Below are positions 1 to 57,166 of a stretch of DNA of 64,000 bases, piece by piece. The notes below the pieces were generated by a model that saw nothing but the letters and a program-made list of their open reading frames with translations, did not search any database and was not told the DNA's origin. This DNA is from Nibricoccus sp. (GTDB lineage Bacteria; Verrucomicrobiota; Verrucomicrobiia; Opitutales; Opitutaceae), in contig JASGHG010000001.1 in the NCBI GenBank assembly GCA_047602425.1, positions 4,192,001 through 4,256,000 on the forward strand, in the 5' to 3' direction. Made by a program: the position numbers and the translations under genes. The first letter of the stretch is position 1. Each line of letters begins with the position of its first letter.

Positions 1-3000
1 CCGCGAAGCCTGCGATCTGCTCGATGGACGCCGCATGAAAAACTGCGAACTTGTGCCGCTTTTCGGCCGCCTTTCCAACTCCGAGCAGCAACGCGTTTTT
101 GCCCCGACGCAACGGCGGAAGATCGTCGTTGCAACCAACATTGCCGAAACTTCGCTGACGATTCCCGGCATTCGTTTCGTCGTCGATACGGGCCTCGCGC
201 GCGTGAGCCGCTACGCCCAGCAATCGCGCACGCGCCGCCTGCCGATTGAGGAAATTGCACAGTCGAGCGCCGACCAGCGCAAAGGCCGCAGCGGCCGCGT
301 GGCGGAGGGCGTGTGCATCCGCCTGTATTCAGAAAAAGACTTCAACGAACGCCCGCGCTTCGCCCAACCCGAAATTCAGCGCGCCAACCTCGCCGACGTC
401 ATCCTGCGCATGAAGGCCTTCGGCCTTGGCGACATCGAGCGGTTCCCCTTTATCAACATGCCCGCGACGAAGGCGATCCGGGCGGGCTATGCGTTGCTGG
501 AGGAGTTGGGGGCGATTGAAAACCAGAAGCCGGAAGCCGGAGGCCGGATGCCAGATGTCGGAAGTCAGAGGTCGGAGGTCGGAAGCCAGAAGCCAGAAGC
601 CAGAGGCCAGAAAAGAGAGGATGACGCCGCAGCAACTTCTGAAATCCGCGGTCCGGCTTCTGGCCTCCGACCTCTGGCTTCTGTTCTGACGCCTCTCGGC
701 CGGGAACTCGCCCGCTTGCCCGTCGATCCGACCGTGGGACGCATGATCTTGCAGGCGCGGACGGAAAAATGCCTCCGTGAAGTCATGGTAATCGCGGCCG
801 GTCTTTCGATTCAGGATCCGCGGGAGCGTCCGCTCGACGCTCGCGAAAAAGCCGATGCGGCGCATCGCAAGTTTTCTCATCCCGACTCGGATTTTCTTGC
901 GCTGCTCAACATCTGGGACGCGTTTCACGACGAATTCGAAACGATGTCGCAGGCGAAGCTGCGTCGTTTCTGTCGCGATCATTTTCTCAGTTACACGCGC
1001 ATGCGCGAATGGCGCGATATTCACAGCCAGCTGATGGATGTCTTGGAGGAGCGTGAGGGCTTCAAGTTGACCTCTGCGTTTCACGGGTTGAAACCCGAAC
1101 AGATCACGCCCGACAAGGAAGCCTTTGGCACGCCGCCTTACCGCGCGATCCATCGGTCGATTCTGGCGGGCTTGCTCGGCAACATCGCCACGCGCGACGA
1201 CGAAAACGGCGGGTACAAGGCAACCAATGACCGTCGCGTGGTGATATTTCCCGGTTCGGTGTTGTTTCCGAAGGACGAGCAGAAGAAGAAGCCCTCCTAC
1301 GCCAAGGCTACGGAGGGCGGGGCTCGCGACAAGCGCTCGCCCCGCTGGATCATGGCGGCGGAGATCATGGAGACGTCGCGGCTTTATGCACGGACGTGTG
1401 CGCGGCTCGATCCGCTCTGGGTGCTCGATCTGGCCGAGCACTTGGTGAAAGTTTCGCACAGCGAGCCGTTCTGGAACGAAGCAGGCGGTCGCGTGCTGGT
1501 GAAACAAAAGACGCGACTTTACGGTTTGGAGCTGGAGACACGTTCGGTCGGCTTCGGGAAAATCGACCCGGTTCAGGCGACGGAGATTTTTATTCGCGAA
1601 GCGCTCGTGAATGACACGATCACGTGGCCCTTCGATTTTCTGACGCACAACCGCGAGGTCCGCGCTAAGATTGAAAATCTGCTCACCCGCGCCCGTGACA
1701 GCAGCTACATGAATCTCGACGAAGGTGTGTACCGGTTTTATGCGGAACGATTGCTGCCGGAAGTTGGAGCGCGACCTCCGGGCACGCCTTCGCAAGGCGT
1801 CAGCTCTGTTGCCGAACTCGTCGATCTTGTGCGCGAACGCAAAGGCGCGGAACCGCGTTTCCTGATGATGGAGCCGGACGATCTGCGCGACCCGGAGGAG
1901 TTGCAGCACGATGTCGAAGCATTTCCCGAAGCCTTGCCGCTCGAAAATCGCGCGGTGCCCATCGCCTACGCCTACAAACCCGGTCAGGCGGACGACGGTG
2001 TGACGCTCGAAGTGCGCGTGCGCGAGGCGAATTTGCTCGCGCCGGCATCACTCGACTGGGCGGTGCCCGGGCATTTGGAGGCGAAAGTCGAACACTACCT
2101 GCGTGCCATGCCGAAAGAGTTACGCCGCGCTTTCATGCCCTTGGCGGAAACGGCAAAGAGTCTGGCGGCGCAGTTGGCGCAACGCGACCGGCTCACGGGC
2201 CGCCGGGAAAATTTGACCGAAGCGTTGGCTACGCAGTTGGCGGAGCGTTTTCAGATTCGAGTCGACCCCGCACTTTGGAACGAAAAACCGTTGCCGGACC
2301 ACTTGCGCGTGCGCGTGCGGGTGCTCGACGACGAAGGAGTGGAAATATGCGCCAGCCGCGAACTGACGGAAATTCAAACGGCACTGGCCACGCGACAACG
2401 CGAAGTCAGCGCGAACGTCGCCCATGAAGATCCGCAGGCTTGGCGCGCAGCACGTTCGCGCTGGGAAAAGGCACCGCAGACGACGTGGGTTTTCGGTGAC
2501 GTGCCGGAGCGCGTCCCCGTCGGCGAACAGGCGGGCGTGCCGGTTTTTGCGTTTCCCGGGCTCAAAGCCGAAGGGGAGGGCGTCGCATTGCGCTTGTTCC
2601 GCCAGCCCGAGGAAGCCGCGAAGGCGACGCAACTCGGACTGGAGCGGTTGATCGAATTGCAGCTGCGCTACGAACTGGCGTGGATGCAAAAAGACCTGAA
2701 GGCAATGCGCGATCTCGGCACGCTCACGGCCACGCTCGCGCCGATCAATGAAATGATGGAGCAAGCCTATGGTTCGGTACGTCGGTGGATTTGCACGCGT
2801 CCTGTCGCTCCGCTCAGCGCGGCTGTTTTTGAAGCAACGCTCGCCCGCGCCAAAGCCGACCTGCGCGGCTTCGTGCCGCGGCTCATGGACTTGTTGAAGG
2901 ATATTCTGACATTGCGGCAGGCGTTGCTCGTGCATCCGCATCTGTATCGCGGACAGGGCCCGGAACTGGCGACCTTGTTGGGGCCGGATTTTCTTGCGAC

Positions 3001-3439
3001 GACTCCGTATGAACAGCTGGCGCATTTCCCGCGGTATTTGAAAGCGATGCGCTTGCGCGCGGACCGCTGGCGCCAGAACCCGGCAAAAGACGAGGAACGC
3101 GCCAAACAACTCGCGCCGTACATGAAAGCCGCGAACGAACTGCGCACGCGTGCGGGCGCCGAGGCGTTTTTTTGGATGGTGCAGGAGTTTCGGGTGAGTC
3201 TGTTTGCGCAGGAACTTGGCACCGCCGAAGCGGTTTCGGCGGTAAAATTGGACCGCGTTTTGGCCGATATAAGAGCCGGACGCATCTCGGAAACCACGAC
3301 GGAAGCGGCGAAAAATATTGAGCAAAAGACGTCACCGACGGCCCAGCCGAAGCCGATTGTATCGACGCCGGTGCCCACGAAGAAGACGGGACCGCTGAAG
3401 AGCCTGGGCTCGCTCGATGCCTTGTTTAGGAAGACATAA
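1..3439 (+). CDS. hrpA: ATP-dependent RNA helicase HrpA (5' end outside window)
   Basis: Frame is open from position 2. DEAH helicase motifs ATNIAETSLTIPGI, QRKGRSGR, GVCIRLYSE and LARLPVDP; HrpA C-terminal ELRVSLFAQELGT-like motif (QEFRVSLFAQELGT). Confidence 0.95.
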   Translation, partial: REACDLLDGRRMKNCELVPLFGRLSNSEQQRVFAPTQRRKIVVATNIAETSLTIPGIRFVVDTGLARVSRYAQQSRTRRLPIEEIAQSSADQRKGRSGRVAEGVCIRLYSEKDFNERPRFAQPEIQRANLADVILRMKAFGLGDIERFPFINMPATKAIRAGYALLEELGAIENQKPEAGGRMPDVGSQRSEVGSQKPEARGQKREDDAAATSEIRGPASGLRPLASVLTPLGRELARLPVDPTVGRMILQARTEKCLREVMVIAAGLSIQDPRERPLDAREKADAAHRKFSHPDSDFLALLNIWDAFHDEFETMSQAKLRRFCRDHFLSYTRMREWRDIHSQLMDVLEEREGFKLTSAFHGLKPEQITPDKEAFGTPPYRAIHRSILAGLLGNIATRDDENGGYKATNDRRVVIFPGSVLFPKDEQKKKPSYAKATEGGARDKRSPRWIMAAEIMETSRLYARTCARLDPLWVLDLAEHLVKVSHSEPFWNEAGGRVLVKQKTRLYGLELETRSVGFGKIDPVQATEIFIREALVNDTITWPFDFLTHNREVRAKIENLLTRARDSSYMNLDEGVYRFYAERLLPEVGARPPGTPSQGVSSVAELVDLVRERKGAEPRFLMMEPDDLRDPEELQHDVEAFPEALPLENRAVPIAYAYKPGQADDGVTLEVRVREANLLAPASLDWAVPGHLEAKVEHYLRAMPKELRRAFMPLAETAKSLAAQLAQRDRLTGRRENLTEALATQLAERFQIRVDPALWNEKPLPDHLRVRVRVLDDEGVEICASRELTEIQTALATRQREVSANVAHEDPQAWRAARSRWEKAPQTTWVFGDVPERVPVGEQAGVPVFAFPGLKAEGEGVALRLFRQPEEAAKATQLGLERLIELQLRYELAWMQKDLKAMRDLGTLTATLAPINEMMEQAYGSVRRWICTRPVAPLSAAVFEATLARAKADLRGFVPRLMDLLKDILTLRQALLVHPHLYRGQGPELATLLGPDFLATTPYEQLAHFPRYLKAMRLRADRWRQNPAKDEERAKQLAPYMKAANELRTRAGAEAFFWMVQEFRVSLFAQELGTAEAVSAVKLDRVLADIRAGRISETTTEAAKNIEQKTSPTAQPKPIVSTPVPTKKTGPLKSLGSLDALFRKT
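523..684. repeat. In-frame inverted heptamer array (consensus YCRGADG) inside hrpA
   Basis: 13 heptamers at 523-613 (CCAGAAG CCGGAAG CCGGAGG CCGGATG ...), a short spacer, then about 7 reverse-complement heptamers at 636-684 (CTTCTGG CCTCCGA CCTCTGG ...). Confidence 0.9.
1291..1318. repeat. Palindromic element in frame in hrpA (encodes PSYAKATEG)
   Basis: GCCCTCC-TAC-GCCAAGGC-TAC-GGAGGGC, an imperfect palindrome. Confidence 0.7.
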
Positions 3440-3535
3440 GCGGGATTAACAGTTGAGATTAGAAGGCGAAATTAGGGGTTGTAGGCGCAGCGAATTCGTG
3501 GAAAATACCCGACAGTTAATTGACCCCTTCTTCCC

Positions 3536-4125: not shown

Positions 4126-4542
4126 ATGAACCTCGAAACCGCCAACCAACACATCAAAGCCTGCCGCGACCGCATGGACGTGCTCTATCAGAAGCCTGTC
4201 TTTGACGAATGGGTTGTGTTGAGCGTGATGCAGGGCAAGGCGGAGATCCGGGCGTATACCGGCCCACGCGCCGAAAAATTCAAGGCCGATCTGCACCGCG
4301 ATTCGGCGCCCTTGATGTCCCAAATGCAGGGCAATTATTACAGCGTCGGCGATTTCGAGTTCGTGGACAACGCCGGGGGCTCGCGCTATGACGCCTGTAT
4401 CCGCCTCGGACATACGCTCTATCTCCTCTGCAATAATACCTATGGCACGCTCGCCGCGCTCAGGGCGGATCCGCGTTGGCGCGAGGCGCAAAAACCCTTC
4501 GTGGATCTCACGGAAAAATTCCGCGCCGACCCCCTGGTCTGA
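4126..4542 (+). CDS. Hypothetical protein
   Basis: ORF from ATG 4126 (MNLETANQH) with host-like codon usage; no family recognised. Confidence 0.7.
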   Translation: MNLETANQHIKACRDRMDVLYQKPVFDEWVVLSVMQGKAEIRAYTGPRAEKFKADLHRDSAPLMSQMQGNYYSVGDFEFVDNAGGSRYDACIRLGHTLYLLCNNTYGTLAALRADPRWREAQKPFVDLTEKFRADPLV

Positions 4543-4551
4543 TAATCTGTC

Positions 4552-4627
4552 TCTTTATCTTTCGTCTTTCTCTTTTCTTCTGAAAACATGGGGAGAAAGA
4601 GGAAAGGGAAAGATAAAGAATAAAGAT
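4552..4627. repeat. Inverted 6/7-mer repeat arms (TCTTTM / KAAAGA) between convergent genes
   Basis: TCTTTATCTTTCGTCTTTCTC ... GAGAAAGAGGAAAGGGAAAGATAAAGAATAAAGAT. Confidence 0.7.
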
Positions 4628-4629
4628 CC

Positions 4630-7789: not shown

Positions 7790-7803
7790 CGGTAGCGGGC
7801 GGC

Positions 7804-18070: not shown

Positions 18071-18082
18071 ACGAACCGTTTC

Positions 18083-18216
18083 ACAGAAGGTAATGCAAAA
18101 ACGAAGATGTGATGGTTATTCGATACTTGGTTGGCAGAACTTGGGTCTATCCGCCGAGAAAAGTGAAAGATGAACCGCGAAAACGTGAGTCTCTCGTTAT
18201 CTTGGTTGCCTTCTGT
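18083..18216. repeat. Inverted 9-mer-type repeat arms flanking a unique interior
   Basis: ACAGAAGGTAA (18083) versus TTGCCTTCTGT (18206-18216), 10/11 match, with decayed extra units. Confidence 0.6.
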
Positions 18217-18235
18217 TACGTTTAAATTGGAAGGC

Positions 18236-18266
18236 AAAACCGCCGTCCCACGAGGGGGGCGGCGGT
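18236..18266 (-). terminator. Rho-independent terminator
   Basis: Minus-strand stem-loop ACCGCCGCCC/GGGACGGCGGT running into a short U tract. Confidence 0.7.
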
Positions 18267-18442
18267 ATCGTTAGCGGGCGGTTGGCCCGTTTTTGCGGTC
18301 GTTAGACTGCGTTGTTCTGTTTACGGGAGAACTCTAACAAGATCAAACTGGCTGGATCGCGAAGTCAGTCAACTGTCCAGACTGTGTTCGCATGAGTTAT
18401 TAGAACATTGAAACGTGCGTTCGGAAGCTAGGCGCTCTTATG

Positions 18443-20299: not shown

Positions 20300-20321
20300 G
20301 AGATCGAGAGAAGGACAGTTA

Positions 20322-20470
20322 CACAGAGGGCACGAGAGGAGGAGCGGAGGTCACGGAGAAAGTGAGCCCACGTTGGATTTTTTGCATCCCGAAGCCCACA
20401 GCTGGCGTGGGGACGCTCGAATTGGGAAAGCGCCTCTCGGCCCTCGGTATTTCTCCCTGTGTTCTCTGTG
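20322..20470. repeat. Inverted CACAGAG-type repeat arms with a unique interior
   Basis: Four CACRGAG-like units per arm, with the same 9-12-9 spacing on both arms. Confidence 0.75.
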
Positions 20471-20488
20471 CAACCATTCCGAAAATTT

Positions 20489-25402: not shown

Positions 25403-27067
25403 TCACTTGTTTTCCAAGTACACGTATTTGTAGGGGTGGTGGTCCAAAAGCGTGGGGTGCCAGCCTTTGACCGAGGGCTGAAGCAGGAAAACGTGCGTGT
25501 AGTGGTAAATGGGTATGAACGGAGCATCGTCGAGAACGAGCGCCTCGGCTTTCTGAAAGAGGGCGTCGCGGGTGGCTGAGTTACTGGTTCGGGCGGCTTC
25601 GAAAAGAAGTTGATCGAAGAGCGGATTTTTCCAACCGGTGAAATTGTTGCCACTATCGGAAGTCCAGATGCTGAGGAAGCTGAGGGGATCAATCGTATCG
25701 CCGATCCAGACGGAACGTAGAATTTGGAACGAGCCAGTGGTTCGGACTGCGAGCATGCTGCCATTTTCCTGGTTGCTCAGGCGGACTTCGAGGCCGAGTT
25801 CGCGGCGCCACATTTCCTGAATGGACTCGGCAACGGCGCGATGGCTTTCGGACGTGTTGAAAAGAAGTTCGATGGGCGGGGCGCCCTTGCCGCCGGGATA
25901 GCCTGCTTCAGTGAGGAGTGCGCGCGCGGCGTCGGCATCGGTCGGGATTTGAGTGGCAGGTGTATAGCCCGCGGTGCCGGGAGGAACGAATGCGCGCGCG
26001 GGAATCTGGCCGGCACGGAGGATTTTGTTGACGATGGCATCGCGATCTACGGCAAGCGAAAGGGCGCGACGCACGCGTCGGTCATTGAGGAAGGGGCGGT
26101 TGACGTTGATGCGGTAGAACTCGGTGCCGAGGAGCGTGTCGACGCGCAGGCGGCGTTGAGGATCGTCTCTCCACACATCGGCTTTGCCGGGTGGCAACGA
26201 CTCGGTGACATGCAACTGGTCGGAACGGAAGGCGCGCTCCTCGGTCTCGCGGCTTTCGCCGGCGTGGAGGTGGATTTCCTTCAGGCGAACGGTTGCGGCA
26301 TCCCAATAGAACGGCGACTTCACGAGGATCATCCGCTGGTTGAGATTCCATTCCTTGAGGGTGAAGGGGCCGTTGGAGACGATGTTGCCGGGCTTGGTCC
26401 ACGTATTGGCGCGGTCGTGCAGCGGACCATGTTTTTCGATGGTCGGCGTGTGCACCGGCATGAACGGAGCGAGCGTGAGGAGCGACAGAAAATTGCGCTC
26501 GGTGTGTTCGAGTTTGATCTGGAGAGTATGGGCATCGATTGCGGAAACGCCGACTTGGGAGAAATCGGCGAGTTTACCTTTATGAAAAGGTTCGGCTTGT
26601 TCGATGACGTAGAGCAAGCTCGCATAGTGCGCGCCGAGCGGGGCGGTGAGAATACGTTTGAAGGAGGCGACAAAATCCTGGGCCGTGACAGGTTCGCCGT
26701 TGGACCATTTGGCATTGGCGCGGAGGTGAAAAATGTAGCGCAGGCCGTCGGGAGAGATGTCCCAACTCTCGGCGACGCCGGGCACGGGGTGCAGGTCGAC
26801 GGGATCCTCGGTGACGAGCCCTTCGAATAGCGCATGGAGTGCGGCGTAATCGTTGGCTACGGTCGATAGTTGGGGATCGAGCTGCGAGATGTCGGGGCTG
26901 ATACCACGATGGAGAATTTGCTCGCGATTGCCGCGCTGGACAGGTGTCTCGCGCGGGGAGCAGGCGGCGAAGAGAAGAAGGGCTGAAAGGCTGAAGAGCT
27001 GAAGGGCGGATGCCAGAGGTCGGAAGCCGGAGGCCAGATGCCGGAGAATAGCGGGCTGGCGGAGCAC
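25403..27067 (-). CDS. Peptide ABC transporter substrate-binding lipoprotein (OppA-like); frame open to 27403
   Basis: PGVAESWDISPDGLRYIFHLR and a FAAC lipobox. Candidate in-frame starts are GTG 27067, ATG 27271 and ATG 27403. Confidence 0.88.
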   Translation of the reverse strand: MLRQPAILRHLASGFRPLASALQLFSLSALLLFAACSPRETPVQRGNREQILHRGISPDISQLDPQLSTVANDYAALHALFEGLVTEDPVDLHPVPGVAESWDISPDGLRYIFHLRANAKWSNGEPVTAQDFVASFKRILTAPLGAHYASLLYVIEQAEPFHKGKLADFSQVGVSAIDAHTLQIKLEHTERNFLSLLTLAPFMPVHTPTIEKHGPLHDRANTWTKPGNIVSNGPFTLKEWNLNQRMILVKSPFYWDAATVRLKEIHLHAGESRETEERAFRSDQLHVTESLPPGKADVWRDDPQRRLRVDTLLGTEFYRINVNRPFLNDRRVRRALSLAVDRDAIVNKILRAGQIPARAFVPPGTAGYTPATQIPTDADAARALLTEAGYPGGKGAPPIELLFNTSESHRAVAESIQEMWRRELGLEVRLSNQENGSMLAVRTTGSFQILRSVWIGDTIDPLSFLSIWTSDSGNNFTGWKNPLFDQLLFEAARTSNSATRDALFQKAEALVLDDAPFIPIYHYTHVFLLQPSVKGWHPTLLDHHPYKYVYLENK

Positions 27068-27380
27068 GGTAGTGCGGAGGTGGTGAGCCGCGCGGTTTGC
27101 GTCAAGCGGCTCGCCCGAAGCGAAGCGGAGGGTTGTCGTAGCGGGCGCCCTCTGGGCGCGACGACAACAAAGGCTGAAGAGCTGAAGGGCGGATGCCAGA
27201 GGTCGGAAGCCGGAGGCCAGATGCCGGAAGCCGGAAATCGGAAGTCGGAAGTCGGAAGACTGGCGGAGCATGGTGGCGCGGAGCTGACGAGCCATGCGGT
27301 TTGCGTCATGGGGCTTGCTTAAGGCGAAACTTTCTTCGGCACGACGATGGCAAAGATGGAAAGGCTGAAGGGCCGAGAGG
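26986..27380. repeat. Tandemly duplicated promoter/start/signal-peptide unit with 7- and 8-mer repeats
   Basis: A 60-bp identical repeat at 26986-27045 and 27169-27228. A second homologous block at 27056-27114 and 27260-27318. A partial third copy near 27359. Confidence 0.9.
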
Positions 27381-27892: not shown

Positions 27893-27924
27893 GCGGAAGA
27901 TGCGGAGGCGGAGAATTTTTTAAC

Positions 27925-27949
27925 CACGGATTTCACGGATGACACGGAT
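27925..27949. repeat. 9-mer repeat arm (CACGGAT x3) between ispD and ispF
   Basis: AACCACGGATTTCACGGATGACACGGAT. Confidence 0.8.
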
Positions 27950-27994
27950 GGAAAGGCGTCCCGCTTCCTTGCGACGTGTTAGGGATCACGCGCC

Positions 27995-40393: not shown

Positions 40394-40411
40394 GGGATGA
40401 CTAATCTGGGG

Positions 40412-40556
40412 CTCAGGAACTCTGGAACGGAATGGGGAACCGCTAATTTGCGCTAATGTACGCTAATTTTCGGAGATGATTTCTAACCACGGATTGCGCG
40501 GATGGGCACGGATGGGAAACCGGATTGAGGGTAGGGACGGACCGCCGGGCCGTCCG
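40412..40556. repeat. Stack of four different repeat families
   Basis: CTCAGGAACTCTGGAA; CGCTAAT x3 (period 10); CRCGGAT x3; REP-like GTAGGGACGGACCGCCGGGCCGTCC. Confidence 0.8.
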
Positions 40557-40565
40557 TGAACGACA

Positions 40566-41945
40566 TTATTTTTTCAACGGCTCCAGTTTGTAGCCATCTT
40601 TGCCGTCGAGCATCGACCAGCCGGCGGCCGTGAGTTCGGCGCGGAGGGTGTCGGCGGCTTTGAAGTCTTTTGCTTTTTTTGCTGCCCAGCGTTTTTCGGC
40701 GAGAGCGGTAACTTCGGCGGGGACTTCAGCTTTCGGGGCGGCAGAAGTATTGAGATCCAGGCCGAGCGCGAACAACGCCTGATCGAAGGAGGCGAGGTCC
40801 GTTTCTTCCTCGTGGCGATTGACGATAGAGAAGAGTTCGCCAAGGGCCGCGGGCGTGTTGAGGTCGTCCTGAAGGGCGGTGATGACCGGGCCGAAAGCGT
40901 TCCGCGTCACACCCGACGTTGGCAAGGTCGCGCGGTAGGCGCGAAGCGTGGCGAGCGCCTTTTCCGCGGCGTGCAGTGTATCGAACGTGAAACTAAGCTG
41001 CTTTCGGGGATGGCCGGCAAGAAGGGCGTAGCGGAGGGCCATCGGGGAGAAACCTTTGGCCTTAATGTCGTCCAGCGTGTAGAGGTTGCCGAGCGACTTG
41101 GACATTTTTTTCCCATCCACGAGGAGGTGCTCGCTATGATACCAATGACGGACGAAGGGCTTGCCGTTGCAGCACTCGCTTTGGGCGATCTCATTCTCAT
41201 GGTGTGGAAAGAGCAAATCGACACCGCCCGAATGAAGATCGATCGTTTCGCCGAGGTGCTTTTTAATCATGGCGCTGCACTCAATATGCCAGCCCGGACG
41301 GCCGCGGCCCCACGGGCTGTCCCAGCCGTTTGCACCATCTTCGGATTTCCAAGCCTTCCAGAGCGCAAAGTCGGATCCGTCCTCTTTTTCGTCCGCGTCC
41401 ACCGCCTGCGATTTATGAGACAGGGCCGAACCAAGCTGGAGATCGCGTTCCTTAATCCGCGAGAGGCGGCCGTAGTTTTCGAACGACGACACTTTAAAAT
41501 ACACCGATCCATCCGGTGCACGATAAGCGTTTCCCTTCTTCATGAGCACGTCGATCATGTCGACCTGTTCGGGAATATGGCCGGTGGCGGTTGGTTCGCA
41601 ATCGGGCGTGAGCGGCAGGCAGTTGAGCGCGGCGCAATCGGCGTGAAATTTATTGGTCCACTGTGTGGTGACTTCAGTGAGCGAACGGCCTTCGTCGCGA
41701 GCGCGCTTGATCGTTTTGTCGTCCACATCGGTCAAATTGCGGACGTATTTCACTTTGTTCTCGCCGAATTCGAGAATGAGCAAACGGCGAAGCACGTCGT
41801 TGACGACGAAAGTCCGAAAATTGCCGATATGCCCCGCAGCATACACGGTGAGACCGCAATTATAGAAACGGAAAACGCCGTCCTGATGCGAGGGCGCGAG
41901 AATCTTGGGCTGGCGGGTTAACGAATCGAAGAGCGTGATGGGCAT
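40566..41945 (-). CDS. cysS: Cysteine--tRNA ligase
   Basis: HIGN, TDVDDK, DFALWK, GRPGWHIECS, FPHHENE and KMSKS. Confidence 0.98.
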   Translation of the reverse strand: MPITLFDSLTRQPKILAPSHQDGVFRFYNCGLTVYAAGHIGNFRTFVVNDVLRRLLILEFGENKVKYVRNLTDVDDKTIKRARDEGRSLTEVTTQWTNKFHADCAALNCLPLTPDCEPTATGHIPEQVDMIDVLMKKGNAYRAPDGSVYFKVSSFENYGRLSRIKERDLQLGSALSHKSQAVDADEKEDGSDFALWKAWKSEDGANGWDSPWGRGRPGWHIECSAMIKKHLGETIDLHSGGVDLLFPHHENEIAQSECCNGKPFVRHWYHSEHLLVDGKKMSKSLGNLYTLDDIKAKGFSPMALRYALLAGHPRKQLSFTFDTLHAAEKALATLRAYRATLPTSGVTRNAFGPVITALQDDLNTPAALGELFSIVNRHEEETDLASFDQALFALGLDLNTSAAPKAEVPAEVTALAEKRWAAKKAKDFKAADTLRAELTAAGWSMLDGKDGYKLEPLKK

Positions 41946-42054
41946 GTTTTGTAACCGCTAATGAACATGAAAGGACGCAGACACGAGCGAGTTTTTTTTA
42001 TCGTCGGGGGAATCTCTGTTGATTGTCCCGGCAGGGATTGGCTTGGTTGGGTAC

Positions 42055-43140
42055 ATGCGAGTGAACCTGCGTTTTCTGATGATCTTCGGCTGCATGATGG
42101 GAAGTGCGACGGCAGCGCCGACATCGAACCCGTTTGTGCCAGAGTTCAGGTTTTCGGAGCCGTTCAGCGCCACGCGCTTGGCGGCCGAACGGGCAGGACT
42201 GGCCCTCGATGGTTTCGCAGCACCGGACAAGAGATCGGAACTGATCGCTGGCGACACGATCACGGCGATTGTGACGCTGACTGAAAGCAATTCGGCCACG
42301 CAATGGATCGTGCAATTGAAGGCGGTTGATTTGACGGCCAAGGAAAAACAGGCGCCGGCACTCAGCCAGTGGCGGCTCTACACGACAACCGGCCGGGAGT
42401 TCGATTTCGCCGGGAAACTTGCGGCTTTGGAAATTCGAATGATCGGACCGGCCAAATCGAATGCCCCAACCGATGAAAAAGCCGCGCAAGGGGCGAAAGA
42501 TCGAAAGGTCCGGATTCAGGTGAATTCAGAATACCTTCGCCTCGGTTTCGATCGAGCATGCAAGGCATGGTTGCGAGTGCAGCAGCTCAAGGCGCACGAT
42601 GCTCTTTTTCTAAAGGAGAATCACGGCTGGGCGTGTAACAGCAGGAAATTTACCGCAGAGGAATTGGTTAAGGGAAAAAGAGATGGCGAGTTGATGGGCC
42701 TGACGGAAACCGAAGAACGTGCGATGGCGGGCACTCTGCCGGCGTTAGTGGCTTTTTTCGGCATCGCGCTTCAGACTTCGGAATTGCGTGATGTGCTGCG
42801 CGAAGTGGCTGAAATACCTTGGTGGCAGTTGGTCAAACATGGAGGCGAGCCGCAGATCAATATGATGTTCCTGCCACAGTTTGGGCAGGGTTGGCCGCAG
42901 GTGTGGCGACTGCCGGCGGGAGAAGGCGCGTGGTATTTCCCGGTGATTTTTAATTTGTTCGACAAGCCCGCGGTGGCTTGTCGCTTGGCTGTCACGGAGC
43001 CGAAGCCGCCGTTGCTGACCAGCGCTGGCATTATCGGTGTCGCGGCGCAGCGGCCCGACGGGAAAGGACCACATTTGATGATTCAGGTGATCGCGACGCG
43101 AGGTGCTTCGGAGAATTTGGAAAAGATTAGCGTGAAATAA
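42055..43140 (+). CDS. Hypothetical exported protein
   Basis: Long ORF with a signal-peptide-like N-terminus (ATA-AP); start uncertain (42055/42061). Confidence 0.7.
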   Translation: MRVNLRFLMIFGCMMGSATAAPTSNPFVPEFRFSEPFSATRLAAERAGLALDGFAAPDKRSELIAGDTITAIVTLTESNSATQWIVQLKAVDLTAKEKQAPALSQWRLYTTTGREFDFAGKLAALEIRMIGPAKSNAPTDEKAAQGAKDRKVRIQVNSEYLRLGFDRACKAWLRVQQLKAHDALFLKENHGWACNSRKFTAEELVKGKRDGELMGLTETEERAMAGTLPALVAFFGIALQTSELRDVLREVAEIPWWQLVKHGGEPQINMMFLPQFGQGWPQVWRLPAGEGAWYFPVIFNLFDKPAVACRLAVTEPKPPLLTSAGIIGVAAQRPDGKGPHLMIQVIATRGASENLEKISVK

Positions 43141-43183
43141 CCCAAATTCGCGGTTTAATTCTGGATCACTTCTCCCTTCGACC

Positions 43184-44200
43184 ATGGCTGAAAAATTTAA
43201 ACTCGATCTACCTATTCGTCCCCGTCGTCTGCGTCGCACGGCAGCTGTGCGGTCGCTGGTGGAGGAAACGGTGCTGCGTCCGGCGAATTTTATTGCGCCG
43301 CTATTTGTGGTGGACGGCAAGGGTGCGCCGGAGCCGGTCGGCTCAATGCCTGGGGTGGTGCGTCTCAATATTGTCGATCTGGTCAAGGAATGTCGGGTGC
43401 TCGCCAAGCGTGGCGTTCCCGCCGTGGCTCTTTTTCCGAAACTAGATGCCAGCTACAAAGATGAGCGTGGCTCGGCGGCCCTGCACGAGAACACACTGAT
43501 TGTTCGCGCGGTGCAGGCGGTGAAAAAGGCGTTGCCCGAGATGGTGGTGATGACGGACATCGCGCTCGATCCTTACACGAGCCACGGCCATGACGGACTT
43601 CTGACGAAGGACGGTCATGATCTGGCCAACGACGAAACGGTCGAGGTGTTGATGAAAATGGCTGTGCTGCACGCGCAGGCTGGCGTGGATTTTGTCGCGC
43701 CGTCGGACATGATGGACGGACGAATCGGTGCGATTCGCGGAGCGCTCGACACCGCTGGTTTTTCCGAGACGGCGATCATGGCTTATTCGTCGAAATTTGC
43801 CTCGGCGTACTACGGTCCATTCCGCGATGCGGTGGGCACGATGAAGATCGGCAAGGTCGCCGGGCCTTCCGACAAGCGTACCTATCAACTCAATCCCGCC
43901 AATCGCCGTGAGGCGATCACCGAGGCCTTGCTCGACGAGGCGGAAGGCGCGGATGTGGTGATGGTGAAACCCGCAGGTCCATATCTCGACGTGATTCGCG
44001 ACGTGCGTGAAGCCACGCGAATGCCGATTGCGGCGTATCAGGTCTCAGGGGAGTACGCACAACTGCATGCTGCGGCCAAGATGGGGTGGCTCGATCTGCA
44101 GAAGACGCGCCTCGAATCGTTGCTCGCGATCAAGCGGGCCGGCGCCGATATGATTTTGACCTACTTCGCGAAGGACGTTGCGGCGGAGTTGAAGGGGTAA
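43184..44200 (+). CDS. hemB: Porphobilinogen synthase (Asp-rich, non-Zn type)
   Basis: RPRRLR, DIALDPYTSHGHDG, SDMMDGR, MVKPA and AYQVSGEY. Confidence 0.97.
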   Translation: MAEKFKLDLPIRPRRLRRTAAVRSLVEETVLRPANFIAPLFVVDGKGAPEPVGSMPGVVRLNIVDLVKECRVLAKRGVPAVALFPKLDASYKDERGSAALHENTLIVRAVQAVKKALPEMVVMTDIALDPYTSHGHDGLLTKDGHDLANDETVEVLMKMAVLHAQAGVDFVAPSDMMDGRIGAIRGALDTAGFSETAIMAYSSKFASAYYGPFRDAVGTMKIGKVAGPSDKRTYQLNPANRREAITEALLDEAEGADVVMVKPAGPYLDVIRDVREATRMPIAAYQVSGEYAQLHAAAKMGWLDLQKTRLESLLAIKRAGADMILTYFAKDVAAELKG

Positions 44201-44220
44201 TTTTTTTGGTGCGGATTTTT

Positions 44221-44407
44221 GCCACGGAGGGCACAGAGCTCCGACACAGAGTTCACAGAGGACCGAAGAGGTGTAGTTTCTGGCATCGTACCCGATCTTT
44301 GCGTCAGAGCTCCTTGCGTGGACTAACCGCCTCAACGGCCAGACCAACATACGCCAACCTTGCGTACTCCCGCCGCCTCTGTGTCAGAGCTCAGTGCACT
44401 CTGGGGC
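44221..44407. repeat. MITE-like element with 31-bp terminal inverted repeats built of CACAGAG units
   Basis: 44221-44251 versus the reverse complement of 44377-44407: 26/31 identical. Confidence 0.8.
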
Positions 44408-44414
44408 GAGAATA

Positions 44415-45017
44415 TCAGAATGCTGATTTCGGCACTTGGATGGAATCGCCTGGCATGAGGCGCGGATCTTCCATCGGCGATTTTTGGGCGAGATGGGCGT
44501 CAATCGGGTAGGCGACGCGATCACGCACGAGGTTGATCCGCGTTTCCTTCGCGTAGAGGCTGAAACCGCCGGCGGCTTGCACGGCTTTGGTTAGGGTCAG
44601 GTCAGGCGTCCAAACGATGCGACCGGGGCGGGTGACTTCGCCGCCAACGTAAACGAAGCGTTCGGTCACCGAGACAGCGACATCGACCGTGGTGTAGATT
44701 TTTTTCGAAACGTAGGTTTCGCGAATTTTCTGAGACAGACCGGCGGTGGTTGTGCCAGCCGCGGTGACAGGGCCGATGTAGGGAAGCGTGACGAGGCCTT
44801 GTTCGTCCACCTGCACGGAATTTGCCGTGGGATCGGGCACGCCTTGCAGCGTGATGACAAGCGTGTCTCCGGGGCGGAGATTGGCGACGGAGCTGGCTTC
44901 GGGCAGTTTGGGATTGCCGCGGGTGGACGTGGCGGTGTTGCAGCCGGTGATGAACGCGCAAACGAGTGCGCAGATCAACGCTAGGGGAAACAGTCGATAC
45001 CGGGCAACGTGATGCAT
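44415..45017 (-). CDS. Polysaccharide biosynthesis/export lipoprotein (Wza-like, SLBB)
   Basis: Lipobox ITGC, LRPGD, VYVGGEVTRPG and LMPGDSIQVP. Confidence 0.88.
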   Translation of the reverse strand: MHHVARYRLFPLALICALVCAFITGCNTATSTRGNPKLPEASSVANLRPGDTLVITLQGVPDPTANSVQVDEQGLVTLPYIGPVTAAGTTTAGLSQKIRETYVSKKIYTTVDVAVSVTERFVYVGGEVTRPGRIVWTPDLTLTKAVQAAGGFSLYAKETRINLVRDRVAYPIDAHLAQKSPMEDPRLMPGDSIQVPKSAF

Positions 45018-45059
45018 GTTACGAGGTCGAGTTGAGCCAAACCCCGGTTAAATGCAACG

Positions 45060-45868
45060 TCACCGTTTCTTTTTCGCGCTGCGTTTCGGACGTTCGTCTT
45101 CCTCTTCGTCCTCATCTTCTTCGTCGTCGTCATCCGAGTCGTCGTCATCATCGTCGTCATCGGAATCTTCGTCGTCGTCAGATTTTTCTTCGTCCTCGTC
45201 GTCTTTATCTTCGTCGTCTTCGTCCCACTTGAGGGACTCGTCGTTCTTGAGTTTTTCTTCCTCTTCTTCGTCGAGTTCGGGTAGGTCGTCGTCTTCGTCC
45301 TCGATTTCCTTGGCGGGCTGTTCTTCGTCGGTGTCCCAACCGGCGGGCACGTAGTCGAGGATGGAGGTGATTTCTTCGAAGGAATGCACGGCTTTGCCTT
45401 CGATAAAACTGGTGTTTTGGTCTTCGCGGAGTTCGTCCTCGACCTCGTCGACGGTCAGCTTCGATTCGAAATCGAAGAGGTCGTTGAGCATCTTAACGCG
45501 GAGGCGGGTGAGATGGTCGAGCAGGTCGGCGAAGGGCCATTTTCCTCGTCGATGACGTCGGGGAGGGCGAAAAGTTTTTCGTCGGATTCGAAGATGGAGT
45601 CTTTCACGCGCTTGAGGCGGACACGGCCTTCGCCGAGGTCTTTTTCAATGCGGAAAGGAATAAACGCGGCCTCCATGATGTCCTGGTCGAAGCCGTAATC
45701 GCGGAGGGGCTCGATCAATTCAAGCAGATGAGCGACCTGACGCGGGTCGATGATACTGAGTCCATCAACGTCCCAGCGCACGGAGTCGCTGACTTCGTTG
45801 ACCCACCAGTTATGATCTTCACCGAGACGAACGCTGCACCAGTCGAGGATATTGGAGGATTTGGCCAT
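45060..45868 (-). pseudogene. Hypothetical protein with a long acidic tail, 1-bp frameshift near 45536 (probably a sequence error)
   Basis: Adding one C in GGC CCT TC joins MAKSSNILDW... to (PF)ADLLDHLTRLRVKMLNDLFDF...DDEEDEDEEEDERPKRSAKKKR. Confidence 0.75.
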
Positions 45869-46173
45869 GTTGTTGCTTAACTTTCGGAGCAAAAGGCCCG
45901 GGATTAAGCGGAGTCAAACCGGTAAATTGAAAATCTTGCGACTTTCTTGTGTCTGGTCTCCACCAGTCGTCCGGGCCGAAAATTGAACGCGGAGCGTGTT
46001 GTCGGCTTTTCGAAAAACAAGCACAAAAATGCGGGAATCGTGCGGAAAGTAGCAGGATGCGCATTTTTGCCGCGGGGACGAACGGCGGATGGGGGCCTTT
46101 TGGCGGGGTTATGGTGCAAACCGTTCGCGGGACGCCTTGATTTCTTGCCGGGGGTTTTCCACTGTGGCGAGTC

Positions 46174-47247
46174 ATGGGCATGATTTACGAAAAAGTTTTG
46201 CGTCCCGCCTTCTTCTCGCTCGGACCCGAGCGGGCTCACGAACTCGCCATGCAGGCCATGTCTTTGCTCGGGCATGTCCGGCCGCTGTGCTGGGCGATGG
46301 AACAGTTTAACCAATTGCCTGCGTCGAGCATGAAGCCAATCGAGGCCTTTGGACTGAAATTCCCCAATGCTGTCGGTTTGGCCGCTGGTTTCGACAAGAA
46401 CGCTGAGGGCTGGACGGCGGCGGCGGCTCTGGGCTTTGGTCATATCGAAGTCGGCACGATTACGGCGCAAGGTCAGCCCGGTAATCCACAGCCGCGCGTG
46501 TTTCGTTATCCCAAGGAAGAAGCGGTGATCAACCGTATGGGTTTCAACAACGAAGGCGCGGATCGCGTGGCTGCGCGTTTCGCGAAGCTGCCGAAGCCGG
46601 GCGAACGCCGCATTCCCGTTGGCATCAATCTGGGCAAAACCAAGGTGACGCCGCTGGAAAAAGCCGTGGGCGACTACCTCGCGAGTTTTGAGCGACTGGC
46701 GGACTATGCGGATTATCTCGTCCTCAATGTCAGCAGCCCCAACACGCCCGATCTGCGCAAGCTTCAGGACGAGGATCGTCTGCGCGAACTCCTCGGCGCC
46801 ATCATGGACGCCAATCGCGCGCGCCTCGACGCCGGCCGCAGCCGGAAGCCTGTTCTCCTGAAAATCGCGCCGGATCTCACTTTCCCGCAGATCGACTCGG
46901 TTCTTGCCGCTATCAATGAGTTCGGTCTCGATGGTATCATTGCGACGAATACAACCCTTGCGCGCCCCGGTTTCTTCGCGACGGTCGATCAGGCTGGCGG
47001 CTTGAGCGGCAAGCCCGTGCGCAAGCGTTCGACCGAGATCATCAATTACATCGCGCGCGCGACACACGGAAAATTGCCGATCATCGGCGTGGGCGGCATT
47101 CATTGCGCGGCGGATGCCGGCGAAAAACTCGATGCGGGCGCCACGCTTGTCCAGATTTACACCGGCATGATTTATCGCGGTCCATTCTTCGCCAGGGATC
47201 TGGCCTGGGCGCTTAATGCGCGTCAGGATAAGGACTGGGTGCGGTAG
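46174..47247 (+). CDS. pyrD: Quinone-dependent dihydroorotate dehydrogenase
   Basis: GLAAGFDK, NRMGFNN, NVSSPNT, KIAPD and GGLSG. Confidence 0.97.
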   Translation: MGMIYEKVLRPAFFSLGPERAHELAMQAMSLLGHVRPLCWAMEQFNQLPASSMKPIEAFGLKFPNAVGLAAGFDKNAEGWTAAAALGFGHIEVGTITAQGQPGNPQPRVFRYPKEEAVINRMGFNNEGADRVAARFAKLPKPGERRIPVGINLGKTKVTPLEKAVGDYLASFERLADYADYLVLNVSSPNTPDLRKLQDEDRLRELLGAIMDANRARLDAGRSRKPVLLKIAPDLTFPQIDSVLAAINEFGLDGIIATNTTLARPGFFATVDQAGGLSGKPVRKRSTEIINYIARATHGKLPIIGVGGIHCAADAGEKLDAGATLVQIYTGMIYRGPFFARDLAWALNARQDKDWVR

Positions 47248-47253
47248 GTGAGG

Positions 47254-47325
47254 GTGGAGGCCAGAAGCCGGAAGCCAGGAGCCAGAAGCCGGAAGTTGGA
47301 GGACGGAGGCCGGAAATCGGAGTTC
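47254..47325. repeat. Heptamer array (YCRGARG), same family as the hrpA insert
   Basis: CCAGAAG CCGGAAG CCAGGAG CCAGAAG CCGGAAG TTGGAGG ACGGAGG CCGGAAA ..., starting just after the pyrD stop. Confidence 0.85.
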
Positions 47326-47347
47326 GGGCGCTGGTGTCGAAAAAGGA

Positions 47348-47373
47348 AAGGCCGGCGTGGAAGCCGGCCTTCA
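47348..47373. terminator. Hairpin between convergent genes; REP-family relative and likely terminator
   Basis: AAGGCCGGC-GTGGAA-GCCGGCCTT; same loop as the 13812 hairpin; U-rich tail on the minus strand. Confidence 0.65.
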
Positions 47374-47395
47374 GGGAAAGCGGTGAAGAAGCGGG

Positions 47396-47728
47396 TCAGG
47401 CTTTTTTCACGAAGCAGGCTTTGAGCGCCATGGGAGTGCCGTCGATTTTGCAATCGATTTCATGATCGCCGTCGACGAGGCGGATATTTTTCGCCTTGGT
47501 TCCGCCCTTAAGCACGCCAGAGCCGCCGCGCAGCTTGAGATCCTTGATGAGAACGACGGTATCGCCGTCGACCAGCACGTTGCCGTTGGCGTCTTTGACG
47601 ATGCGGGCTGTTTCGGTTTCGGCGGCGGCTTCCTTGGGCCATTCATGGCCGCACGTGGCGCACTCCCAGTGATCGGAATGGCTGAGCACGTCTTCGAGGG
47701 TACAGGCAGGACAGGCGGGAGGTTTCAT
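47396..47728 (-). CDS. YjdM/PhnA-type zinc-ribbon protein
   Basis: CPAC...CATCGHEW, KDANGNVLVDGD, IKDLK and DHEIDCK. Confidence 0.92.
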   Translation of the reverse strand: MKPPACPACTLEDVLSHSDHWECATCGHEWPKEAAAETETARIVKDANGNVLVDGDTVVLIKDLKLRGGSGVLKGGTKAKNIRLVDGDHEIDCKIDGTPMALKACFVKKA

Positions 47729-47797
47729 CGTGAGCTTTCGATAGTGTAGCCTGTCAAATTGCGCGGCCAGCGCCGTTCAGCGCAAGCGAGGATTTTC

Positions 47798-48748
47798 TCA
47801 GGGCTTGGCTGGAATTGGGCTTCGCAGCGTGGCAATCAACGTGGCGGGAACTTCGATGATCGTGCCGTGGCGAACACCGGCGGGAATTTTGATTTTATCG
47901 GTCACATCCTCCCACGTTTTAAAATCCTTCGTGCGAACGGCGCCGTAGTGTTTGTCGCGGTAGCAATCGTAGAAGACGACGAAATTGTCGCCGACCTTGA
48001 TGGCGGTGGGACCTTCGACCCAATCGCGGGTGAAGGGCGCCGAGAGGTCGGTGTAGGGACCGTCGATTTTATCCGACGAGGCGATGCGAAGGTGTTTTTT
48101 CACCGGCACCCGAGTCTCGTCTTTTACGATTAGGTGGAAACGTTGGTTGTCCTTGAGCAATGTGGCGTCGATGACATTGAACCCGGGCTCGTAGAAGAGA
48201 CGAGTGGGAGTGAAAGTGACGAAATCCTTCGTGGTGGTGGCATACACACGATGGTTGTAGCCTTTGTCCTCGGCGATCTGGGTTTCCGGGAATTTGCCAG
48301 TGACAGTGGTGGACCAAAAAATGAGGAAATGTTTTTTGTCCTCGTCATAGGCGATTTCGGGTGCCCAGCAATTGCGCGTGCCGGGTTCGTCGACCATGAC
48401 GGGCAAGGCTTTTTGTTCGGACCAGTTGATCAAATCCTTGGAAGAAGCATAGCCAATGGTTTTGCCTTCCCACGCGGTCGTCCAGACAAGGTGAAACGTG
48501 CCGTCGGGACCGCGGAGCAGGCAAGGATCGCGCATGAGTTTGGACTCGCCGACCCGCGGCGTAAGATAGCTTTTGCCGTCGTTGAGAGCCTCGTAGGTGT
48601 AGCCGTCAGCACCGGCGGCAAGGTGCAGGCCGTCCTCGCCGTTTTTTACGAAGTAAGCGAAAAGGTAGGCGGTGGCGGATGGTTCGGCTGCGATGAGGCG
48701 AAGGGAAAACGCGAAGGCGATAAAGGCGAGCAGCAGCGGCTTTTTCAT
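47798..48748 (-). CDS. Secreted glycoside hydrolase family 43-like protein
   Basis: Signal peptide; MRDP, WAPE, VIDAT and VEGP beta-propeller motifs. Confidence 0.85.
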   Translation of the reverse strand: MKKPLLLAFIAFAFSLRLIAAEPSATAYLFAYFVKNGEDGLHLAAGADGYTYEALNDGKSYLTPRVGESKLMRDPCLLRGPDGTFHLVWTTAWEGKTIGYASSKDLINWSEQKALPVMVDEPGTRNCWAPEIAYDEDKKHFLIFWSTTVTGKFPETQIAEDKGYNHRVYATTTKDFVTFTPTRLFYEPGFNVIDATLLKDNQRFHLIVKDETRVPVKKHLRIASSDKIDGPYTDLSAPFTRDWVEGPTAIKVGDNFVVFYDCYRDKHYGAVRTKDFKTWEDVTDKIKIPAGVRHGTIIEVPATLIATLRSPIPAKP

Positions 48749-53994: not shown

Positions 53995-54045
53995 GCGGAA
54001 GAAAGAACCTGTCCACTGGCCGCCTGTTTGGTGCGGCCGGAGTGG

Positions 54046-55815: not shown

Positions 55816-55989
55816 GGATGTGACGGGCAAAAATGAAGGGCAATACAAAGCTCCGCCTCTCAGGAGAGGCAAGCGCGGAAACCGGATTTACCCGTAGTGA
55901 TTCAGTCCCCGTGCAACCGAAAGACCGAACTGTTGGTTTTGGCCCCTCTCCGCAGCCCTCCGGCAAACGTCTGCCAGCCTCGGAAGGTT

Positions 55990-56087
55990 TGTCATCCATT
56001 AAATGACAAAGGTCCGGTAAACCGACGAAATGACGCGTGGAGGCGAAGGTTGCGGGTATCTGAATGGTTGTCATTTAATAGATGACA
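55990..56087. promoter_or_regulatory. Two TGTCAT-N7-ATGACA palindromes upstream of ilvB
   Basis: 55990-56008 and 56069-56087; 18/19 identical as inverted copies. Confidence 0.65.
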
Positions 56088-56246
56088 TACCAGTTTGATA
56101 GGTACAATGGCATCTTTGATGCCGAGCGGGGTTTTGCGAGGGGCAAAAAAGAAACGCTGTGGATTGAGGGGGGTTGGCCACGGCGGTAAGTGGATGGGCA
56201 ATGTGATTGCGGTTGCACTTGGGCGGGGGGAGGCGGAGCCTGCGGC

Positions 56247-57035
56247 ATGCTGAAATTTTTGTTCATCGGTGACATTGTTGGGCGGCCGGGCCGCGAGATC
56301 GTGGTTGAGCGCCTGCGCCGACTAAGGTCTGAGCGCGGCATCGATCTTGTGATCGCCAACGCCGAGAATGCCGCTGCCGGATCGGGTGTGACCGGAGCGA
56401 TTGCGAAGGAGTTGCTGGCCTCCGGAGTGGATGCGATCACGCTGGGCGATCACGTATGGGACCAGAAAGGTTGGGAGAGTGAGATCAACAGTTTCGAACG
56501 AGTGTGCCGTCCGGCGAATCTACCCTCGGTGTGCCCGGGGAGGGATCATGTGGTCGTCGAGGCGAAAGGATTTCGTTTGGCGGTTTTTACGGTTTTGGGG
56601 CGTCAATATCTCGGCACGAAAGCGGATTGTCCTTTTCTTTGCGCCGACCGGATGCTCGGTCAACTCGATGGGCTTGCCGATGGCGCGATGGTAGAGATTC
56701 ACGCCGAGGCGACTTCAGAAAAGCAGGCATTGGGCTGGCACCTCGACGGGAGGTCGCTGGCGGTGCTCGGCACGCATACGCACGTGCCGACGGCCGATGC
56801 GGCAGTGCTGCCGAATGGCACGGCGTTCATGTGCGATGTGGGCATGACCGGTCCTTACGCGAGTGTGCTCGGTCGTGAAGTGAAGCCCGTGATCGGACGG
56901 TTTTTGGACGGCATGCCCCGGCGTTTCGAAATTGCCGAAAAGGACGTGCGCCTATCGGGTGCGTTGGTCGAGTTCGATCCAGAAACGCGCAAGGCCGTCA
57001 AATGCGAGTTGCTGGTGATCAGGCGGAATAATTGA
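56247..57035 (+). CDS. YmdB/TIGR00282 family metallophosphoesterase
   Basis: [30 protein letters not shown] and DVGMTG. Confidence 0.93.
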
Positions 57036-57166
57036 GCGCCAAGGCCTGAACCTAATCCATTTTACAGGAGGAAACAGGGAAGCCGAAAATCCCGCAGCGG
57101 CAAAGATGCTGCGCGTGCGCAACCCCTGTTGCCGGCCGACATTGCAGCCACCAGCTATGGCCTTGG

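Follow-up and report, generated by a model that had tools for sequence, protein, structure and literature searches.

The closest described relatives of the repeats treated here are the intervening sequences of 23S rRNA, which in Coxiella burnetii have a 28-bp terminal stem, carry GACAGAT heptamers before an S23p open reading frame (ORF) and are cleaved by RNase III (PMC4990558). Heptamer arrays are also known from other settings. In Xanthomonas and Nostoc, the purine-rich strand of the GGGAATC heptamers lies within 50 bp after stop codons (sense) or before start codons (antisense), co-oriented spacers are preferred and each genome holds 70-75 convergent pairs; the authors interpreted these repeats as G-quadruplex elements and reported that they are not linked to mobile elements, and the word 'helix' is absent from the main text (PMC4692102). 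The TAACTGA repeats of Beggiatoaceae are patchily spread and lie mostly just upstream of starts inside operons, with few Shine-Dalgarno (SD) sites, and their mechanism was left open (PMC4679880). Rickettsia palindromic elements and intragenic repetitive extragenic palindromes (REPs) are in-frame palindromes in housekeeping genes, including uvrA of Opitutus terrae (PMC3733652). Here we compare with these systems the degenerate short-period repeat arms dispersed over a 64,000-nucleotide window (G000:C1:4192001-4256000) of the complete genome of Nibricoccus sp. (5.16-Mb, 57% GC). One protein of this genome has its nearest named relatives mostly in Opitutaceae and other Verrucomicrobiota.

Our reading, to which we give a probability of about 0.6, is that the arms form the ends of small selfish elements, of which gene-bearing copies are few and gene-less pairs and single arms far more numerous, and which would be copied in trans. 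The elements resemble the Coxiella intervening sequence in their length (~430-560 nt), in the stem-forming terminal inverted repeats, in the four-helix ORF in the loop, in the variable unit number and in the tandem heptamers before the ORF, GACAGAT there and YCRGADG here (PMC4990558). They differ in lying at mRNA junctions and in protein loops, in comprising about 20 families and a nuclease-bearing class, and in the predominance of gene-less and single-arm copies. The stop/start layout and the preference for co-oriented spacers are shared with the GGGAATC repeats, which are however one family (PMC4692102) and of which two loci were obtained. The TAACTGA repeats are likewise short heptamer arrays, but they are almost without inverted pairs and no proposal of a cargo gene was found in PMC4679880; in three of their loci (L515, L529 and L620) inward pairs surround AT-rich spacers of 200-500 nt, like our gene-less pairs, and that of L515 holds no ORF of at least 60 aa. 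Like the Rickettsia elements, the insert in hrpA of the window is an in-frame palindrome, putatively translated and missing from orthologues; unlike them, it consists of heptamers in tandem whose family goes with a particular protein family, and a sister class with 9/10-mer arms avoids genes. REPs and their REP-associated tyrosine transposases (RAYT; REPIN systems) are not known to cause target duplication and also combine many gene-less hairpins with a small number of enzyme genes that have these repeats on their flanks, but our arms are tandem arrays rather than short tagged palindromes, and their partner is not an HUH tyrosine transposase.

Within the window, profiles of whole arms, built from the genome outside it and compared with 100 shuffled windows, gave 17 arms at p <= 0.02, starting at 4540(-), 4590, 18190(-), 20316, 20435(-), 26977, 27168, 27351, 27918, 40403, 40433, 40481, 41948, 43124(-), 44217, 44368(-) and 57058. 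Five period-7 arms pass a false discovery rate (FDR) of <=5% (523-613, 657-684(-), 27006-27047, 27189-27258 and 47261-47323), and Tandem Repeats Finder reports arrays at 523, 655, 4546, 4595, 26977, 27003, 27190, 27925, 40441, 40488 and 47256. The arms listed in the initial annotation are real, as every named locus rises above the shuffles except the one at 18083, which alone does not (18077-18109, p 0.75) and whose partner at 18190 does. Beyond that list, most arms turn out to be halves of inverted pairs, the 523 pair is an in-frame part of hrpA, and a CAGGAA-type family is present at 40403. Six inverted pairs are found (523/657, 4540/4590, 18077/18190, 20316/20435, 41948/43124 and 44217/44368), and each of the five that were folded is predicted to close into a long stem (z -1.9 to -5.6). 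A period-6 call at 45184-45224 was rejected as a false positive, being an Asp/Glu-rich low-complexity coding tract of the ORF 45060-45491.

PF05635 and PF13366 are each represented by five genes in the genome, none of them in the window, in agreement with the earlier statement that neither a GxxExxY nor a four-helix-bundle gene is encoded there. The link between such arms and these two gene types, which had been suggested earlier, is right: every GxxExxY gene (five) and all but one of the five four-helix-bundle genes lie closely between paired arms, with the purine arm upstream of the gene and the pyrimidine arm downstream. Six of these cassettes use families of the window, and CACAGAG, ACAGAAG, CACGGAT, CGCTAAT and YCRGADG each match one, so that candidates acting in trans exist although no enzyme is encoded locally. 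The cassettes lie between protein-coding genes (pheS, gatA and others, named by reading their sequence) and not in a 23S rRNA helix, and all three that were folded have predicted stems around the ORF (z -3.6 to -6.5). The fifth four-helix gene has a heptamer arm within its coding sequence; at G000:C1:4665768-4666106 a four-helix gene has a heptamer palindrome in its coding part and a C-terminal extension. One GxxExxY copy is short of about 17 N-terminal residues.

Relatives in other genomes have the same arrangement. For the four-helix proteins, the YCRGADG-flanked protein served as query and 80 loci from several phyla were fetched, 77 of them scorable; YCRGADG heptamers stand upstream in purine sense at 49 and downstream in pyrimidine sense at 54, on both sides at 45 and on at least one side at 58, against 2 and 0 of 77 in the reverse orientation and 0 after shuffling. 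An inward arm family was scored at 28 of 34 GxxExxY loci (both sides in 24, one side in 4). On the GxxExxY tree a branch supported at 100/99 parts AT/AW-ending from AG-ending arms with one exception, and arm type clusters overall (16 changes against 22.1 when shuffled). Other layouts occur: the arms face outward from the GxxExxY gene at L041 and L056 and have the same sense on both sides at L046. A period-6 pyrimidine-first arm precedes a four-helix gene in G039 (L106).

The heptamer-cassette proteins, all encoded outside the window, belong to the S23p/four-helix type (PF05635, TIGR02436, PDB 2gsc at E 6e-8). In the GxxExxY proteins D71, K83, Q95 and Y99 are invariant and E81 nearly so, and the predicted structure (predicted local distance difference test score 94.5) matches nuclease folds, the best being Cas4 with a modest Z of 8.2 (root-mean-square deviation 4.3 over 100 aligned residues); Foldseek gave no GxxExxY match at E <= 0.001 and the sequence search no close solved relative. 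The model thus places GxxExxY in the PD-(D/E)XK nuclease fold with its catalytic residues conserved, and a nuclease activity is putative. An assignment to Avd of diversity-generating retroelements (NF033474) falls short, as one of two tested proteins matched, at 39.6 bits against a curated cut-off of 80. DUF559 as a third cargo was rejected, being a single match within a 1586-aa frame. RAYT genes, which had been listed for checking among those enclosed by paired arms, are not such a partner, since one of four Y1_Tnp matches has an arm within 900 nt; by our own reading of the flanks, REP-like palindromes surround three of the four and short repeats of other kinds the fourth.

The census of the whole genome used 20 patterns with a threshold of <=5% FDR set on two shuffled genomes, and gene positions from our own hexamer model (4107 genes, some starts of which may be wrong). 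It counts 488 arms, families noticed after the scan being left out. Inward pairs within 1.5 kb number 102, of which 91 have spacers of 2-144 nt, 8 surround a cassette gene and 3 surround other repeats; about 4% of the arms carry a cassette gene. The unit number per arm varies widely, and one set of near-uniform arms has a 39-nt consensus with 82-100% agreement at most positions in 58 copies. The CACAGAG-type core was found in none of the viral contigs searched. Another repeat of 150-170 bp, with about 32 blast matches genome-wide and none in the window, was also observed (for example G000:C1:3439630-3439784), one copy of it after a Y1_Tnp gene.

The gene-relative polarity claimed for the arms stands as a layout, purine arm after stops and pyrimidine arm before starts, but it is for the most part inverted-repeat geometry. 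An inward pair reads purine-then-pyrimidine on both strands, and a short-spacer element therefore puts its purine arm after a stop and its pyrimidine arm before a start. Of the 385 intergenic arms of families other than that of 4552, 311 have the 5' end of the purine strand toward the nearer gene, as do 138 of 198 lone arms. The 4552 family is reversed throughout the genome, as it had been described for the window (3 of 33), and its period-6 pairs are outward in six cases and inward in none. Between co-oriented genes, 95 of 137 lone arms have the pyrimidine strand in the mRNA sense (42 opposite), and this excess is the only true strand effect. The purine strand of lone arms lies on the leading strand in 150 of 246.

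Orthologous sites that are empty in one genome and filled in another, whose existence had been named as a test of the mobility idea, do occur. G004 is without the hrpA, 4552, 18083, 20322, 27925 and oppA arms; across 19 sites of the Nibricoccus genome the orthologous rows number 55, of which 36 are short and many of the rest hold a different family, and G003 fills four of the 19 with one heptamer family not found in G000. In the opposite direction, 45 arm loci from relatives were sampled, of which 21 without an orthologous flank were dropped; among the 24 scored junctions, one of which maps to a non-syntenic match and two to the same site, 13 are reused (by the same family in 7, by another in 6) against 6.0% of gene ends (p 2e-10), and reuse by a different family amounts to 6 of 17 (p 3e-4). 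Different lineages have each acquired elements at shared operon junctions and protein loops. In inherited pairs the arms are 90-100% identical, the spacers 56-92% and the fourfold sites of hemB 45-72%, which indicates that the arms are constrained or homogenised and not simply decaying.

The two classes differ sharply in where they land. Deep in long coding genes there are 42 heptamer-class arms and a single 9/10-mer arm; at a shared threshold the heptamers number 27 mid-gene and 63 intergenic and the 9/10-mers 0 and 153. Stop codons are not the cause, because 78-97% of the frames through 9-mer arms are open. The loop of hrpA could be parsed in 15 of 20 orthologues, where it has 5-11 aa in seven, YCRGADG arms in six (one weak) and other long inserts in two. 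The signal peptide of OppA is coded by period-7/-8 arms in G000, by period-8 arms in G003 and by a 9-mer arm in G007, and several other N-termini are likewise built from arms.

How could such elements spread? Each consists of an arm, an interior and an inverted arm, and would be an mRNA-dwelling relative of the ORF-bearing 23S rRNA intervening sequences. One class associates heptamer arms with a four-helix-bundle (S23p/Avd-like) gene and the other 9/10-mer arms with a gene for a GxxExxY PD-(D/E)XK nuclease; few copies per genome keep the gene, and many more are gene-less pairs or leftover single arms. In the transcript the arms are predicted to pair into an extended stem, by which the insert would be looped away and the following start stay accessible; this may explain why the host tolerates it. 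The cognate small protein from the few full copies would recognise its own arm type and promote insertion in trans; for the majority of copies this is suggested by the arm type that follows the protein clade and by arms that stay uniform while spacers drift. Insertion would proceed without target duplication, probably by nick- or break-initiated copying at the hairpin or the arm DNA. Later deletions would leave single arms, and the pyrimidine arm next to a start may survive them more often, as it adjoins or makes up the region where translation starts or a signal peptide. Where its ends have come to flank a pair, an IS1380 transposase can take that pair over, as the structure of the G002 elements and of a few G000 copies shows. 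The initial annotation had regarded the arms as footprints of non-autonomous elements, and this part stands on the gene-less copies and remnants, the gene-bearing forms elsewhere in the genome and the empty and filled sites. A function as sites for RNA-binding or processing factors, also suggested there, would be a hypothetical one.

Several results weigh against the selfish-element reading. At 108 G000 pairs target duplications of k = 4-8 show no excess. Cargo remnants were found in none of 73 gene-less spacers at the protein level and in none of 31 at the DNA level, where the test recovered just 16-19 of 100 positive controls; weak four-helix hints beside the lone arms 609407 and 60343-60416 are not above the top shuffled score. 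Same-family spacers are mostly unrelated (22 of 465 pairs at z>4, control 8), which simple copying does not predict, and arms are no more complementary to their own partners than to those of other pairs in seven of eight families. No gene-bearing copy of the period-6 and period-8 families was found in G000, and no cassette gene near 129 TAACTGA loci (73 of 131 being longer than 900 nt), with strong positive controls. Linkage alone could cluster arm types on the protein tree, and the p-values of the genome comparisons are overstated, as the relatives are kin and not independent. The only copies with clear marks of transposition were moved by IS1380 and not by the cassette proteins, and no movement step was observed.

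Among the other explanations, the one that survives best, although we hold it improbable, is that the arms are host cis-signals under selection (RNA hairpins, RNase III sites, terminators, or translation enhancers in an SD-poor genome), inside which the small genes shelter. On the one hand, arm conservation goes far beyond that of synonymous sites, the hemB|wza junction is filled in six of six genomes by four families (those in G001-G004 and G007 differing from that in G000), and an SD-like word is present at just 334 of 3721 starts. Lone 9/10-mer pyrimidine arms are also favoured in the mRNA sense (58 against 19 spacers; heptamers 30 against 17, p 0.08), and regulatory roles have been proposed for TAACTGA (PMC4679880) and for Nostoc heptamers (10.1101/2022.06.06.494920). 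On the other hand, most sites are empty in some congeners, whereas a needed signal would be retained; the families are interchangeable and stand side by side, each tied to a protein clade; and heptamer arms occur in mid-protein loops too.

It is less probable still that the gene-less pairs are ordinary miniature inverted-repeat transposable elements of DDE transposases, with the arms and small genes as passengers. IS1380-family elements, the model for this case, have CC...GG ends and a 5-bp duplication. In G002 a CGCTAAT pair lies within 16-bp CCT...AGG ends that match IS1380-family copies of that genome; the 20 regions fetched contain 17 complete elements of 162-177 bp with exact 5-bp duplications in 12 of the 17 and a mean identity of 91% among the 16 compared. 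Three G000 copies have such ends and spacers that are 79-82% alike. One IS1380-ended copy (L242, G002:C3) is split by a transposase-like frame of 426 codons. However, 15 of the 488 G000 arms score above the 99th null percentile for an IS1380-type end, where about 5 are expected by chance, and 5 stand clearly apart; none of the window arms is among the top-scoring ends; old copies may have lost the signal. The transposase PF13701 was not found in G000 or G004, and gene-bearing cassettes, judged by eye, are without IS1380-type ends. The likeness in ends, duplication and shared interior thus holds for the G002 derivative and a few G000 copies, not for the window elements or most pairs; since the remaining pairs have no duplication excess and mostly unrelated spacers, DDE transposition accounts for a minority of copies.

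A further and somewhat weaker candidate, which we consider unlikely, supposes that each end is written or copied separately, so that a pair would be put together on the spot around some captured piece of DNA, the cargo gene being one possible interior. Near-uniform arms around mostly unrelated spacers of 16-116 nt, the family-less gene between the arms 41948 and 43124, and staggered arm orders (4290427) would all suit it. Against it, an empty site has too few nucleotides to have yielded a spacer, the spacers have no source elsewhere in the genome, one subfamily has spacer starts in common, and the drift of orthologous spacers is fast enough that it may suffice. A spacer that is simply the pre-existing host spacer was rejected for the same shortness of the empty sites, faint likenesses being visible by eye at hrpA and after S46; the spacers do not fold unusually (mean z -0.42 over 52). 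Least of all can we credit a mutational origin, in which the short units would expand by slippage and the inverted partner would arise through fold-back repair, no dedicated enzyme being needed. Unit number is variable also in Coxiella strains (PMC4990558) and local duplications exist (27006/27189), but complex arms of 25-39 nt are found again at dozens of sites that have nothing else in common, also in other genera; the two arms of a pair are not especially complementary, as fold-back copying predicts they should be; and arm type follows protein clade.

Table 1. Repeat arms and associated features of the window (coordinates in window positions; z, predicted fold).
Feature	Coordinates	Strand	Description
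HrpA-type helicase loop insert	518..685	+	56 codons, in frame; purine period-7 arm 523-613, 43-nt spacer, pyrimidine arm 657-684; fold z -5.6
Period-6 gene-less hairpin	4540..4628		pyrimidine arm 4540-4575 first, purine arm 4590-4628; between convergent genes; z -5.5; not in G004
Degenerate 9-mer (ACAGAAG type) gene-less pair	18077..18222		directly after S46 stop; weak left arm, right arm 18190-18222; not in G004
9-mer (CACAGAG/CACGAGAG type) gene-less pair	20316..20476		fills epimerase-epimerase junction; G004 junction short, armless
Period-8 and period-7 pyrimidine arms	26977..27047	-	in frame as hydrophobic part of OppA lipoprotein signal peptide
ispF-oppA spacer arms	27134..27378		duplicated 8+7 arms (27168-27258), third period-8 arm 27351-27378, GTAG-type REP ~27138
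Lone CACGGAT-type arm	27918..27952	+	pyrimidine strand in mRNA sense; ends ~25 nt before ispF start
Three lone arms of three families, stacked	40403..40515	+	CAGGAA 40403, CGCTAAT 40433, CACGGAT 40481; before oxidoreductase start; GTAG REP at ~40531
Degenerate CGCTAAT-type left arm	41948..41984	+	before cysS start; seen in G001-G004
Gene between the 41948 and 43124 arms	42052..43140	+	~360 aa, family-less
Degenerate CGCTAAT-type right arm	43124..43160	-	partner of 41948; before hemB start
CACAGAG-type gene-less pair	44217..44411		between convergent hemB and wza; z -3.8
Lone period-7 purine arm	47254..47323	+	directly after pyrD stop
Lone ACAGGAG-type purine arm	57058..57090	+	after ymdB stop

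The host genes around these arms (Table 1) were named by Pfam as an HrpA-type helicase, an S46 peptidase, two epimerases, two SBP_bac_5 (OppA) proteins, IspF, IspD, CysRS, ALAD (hemB), Poly_export (wza), DHO_dh (pyrD) and YmdB. Rfam has no match within the window, and a scan of 39000-48000 gave 1 promoter and 19 terminator sites, compared with 2.3 and 12.3 in shuffles, none of which are the arm pairs themselves. OppA probably starts at GTG 27067, with the lipobox Cys codon at 26962. The 27918 site is a 6-bp empty junction in G003 and G004 and holds other arms in G001 and G007. Beside the three stacked arms (40393-40566), cysS adjoins the oxidoreductase gene in G000 only, while by our own reading an acyl-carrier-like gene precedes the latter in G001-G003 and G007; a full CAGGAA pair is retained at its start in G001-G003, and a rearrangement at cysS/oxidoreductase may have removed the partners of the three arms. 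The gene at 42052-43140, enclosed by two CGCTAAT-type arms that we describe as old, has no Pfam, NCBIfam or Atlas match; it is present in G004 and missing at the same junction in G001-G003 and G007. The 47254 arm was not seen in G001, G003, G004 or G007. The S46 gene (15985-18070) is apparently split into the overlapping frames 15985-17697 and 17342-18070, by a frameshift or a sequencing error, and its G004 orthologue seems to read through. After the S46 element, the stretch 18234-18330, which contains a GC-rich hairpin, is near-identical in G004 and has no Rfam match; it is possibly a small RNA or a terminator. The GTAG-type REP palindromes at 40531 and 27138 have 43 and 4 copies genome-wide, and the Y1_Tnp match at G000:4445547 lies amid copies of the 40531 type.

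The polarity of heptamers and heptamer-armed rRNA intervening sequences have been published separately, and no paper joining the repeats to GxxExxY or four-helix genes outside rRNA was found in a literature search that covered subscription journals thinly. The new points are the genome census, the explanation of most of the polarity by geometry and the bias that is left beyond it, the reuse of junctions with family turnover, the constraint on arms, the class split and the IS1380-wrapped derivative. We regard the elements as the intervening-sequence kind in a variant form, and only tentatively, as the less probable outcome, as a mobile-element class of their own. Such a class would have no transposase, integrase or reverse transcriptase; instead a four-helix pentamer of 110-130 residues or a GxxExxY nuclease would recognise a family-specific arm and drive insertion at reused junctions and loops, each class responding to target cues of its own. 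The orphan heptamers of Xanthomonas, Nostoc and Beggiatoaceae might then be single-arm debris, and the rRNA intervening sequences a special landing site.

GxxExxY and four-helix-bundle proteins form two widespread families without an assigned function, and heptamers near starts and stops have long been reported without a mechanism. The Nibricoccus genome joins the repeats and the small proteins, and its nine protein-arm pairs differ in arm sequence, so that binding and cleavage of cognate and non-cognate arms can be tested directly. Arm DNA also reshapes essential proteins of the host, as the arms deep in coding genes and the arm-built signal peptides illustrate. The sharp difference between the two classes in the choice of target is a property that any proposed mechanism must account for.

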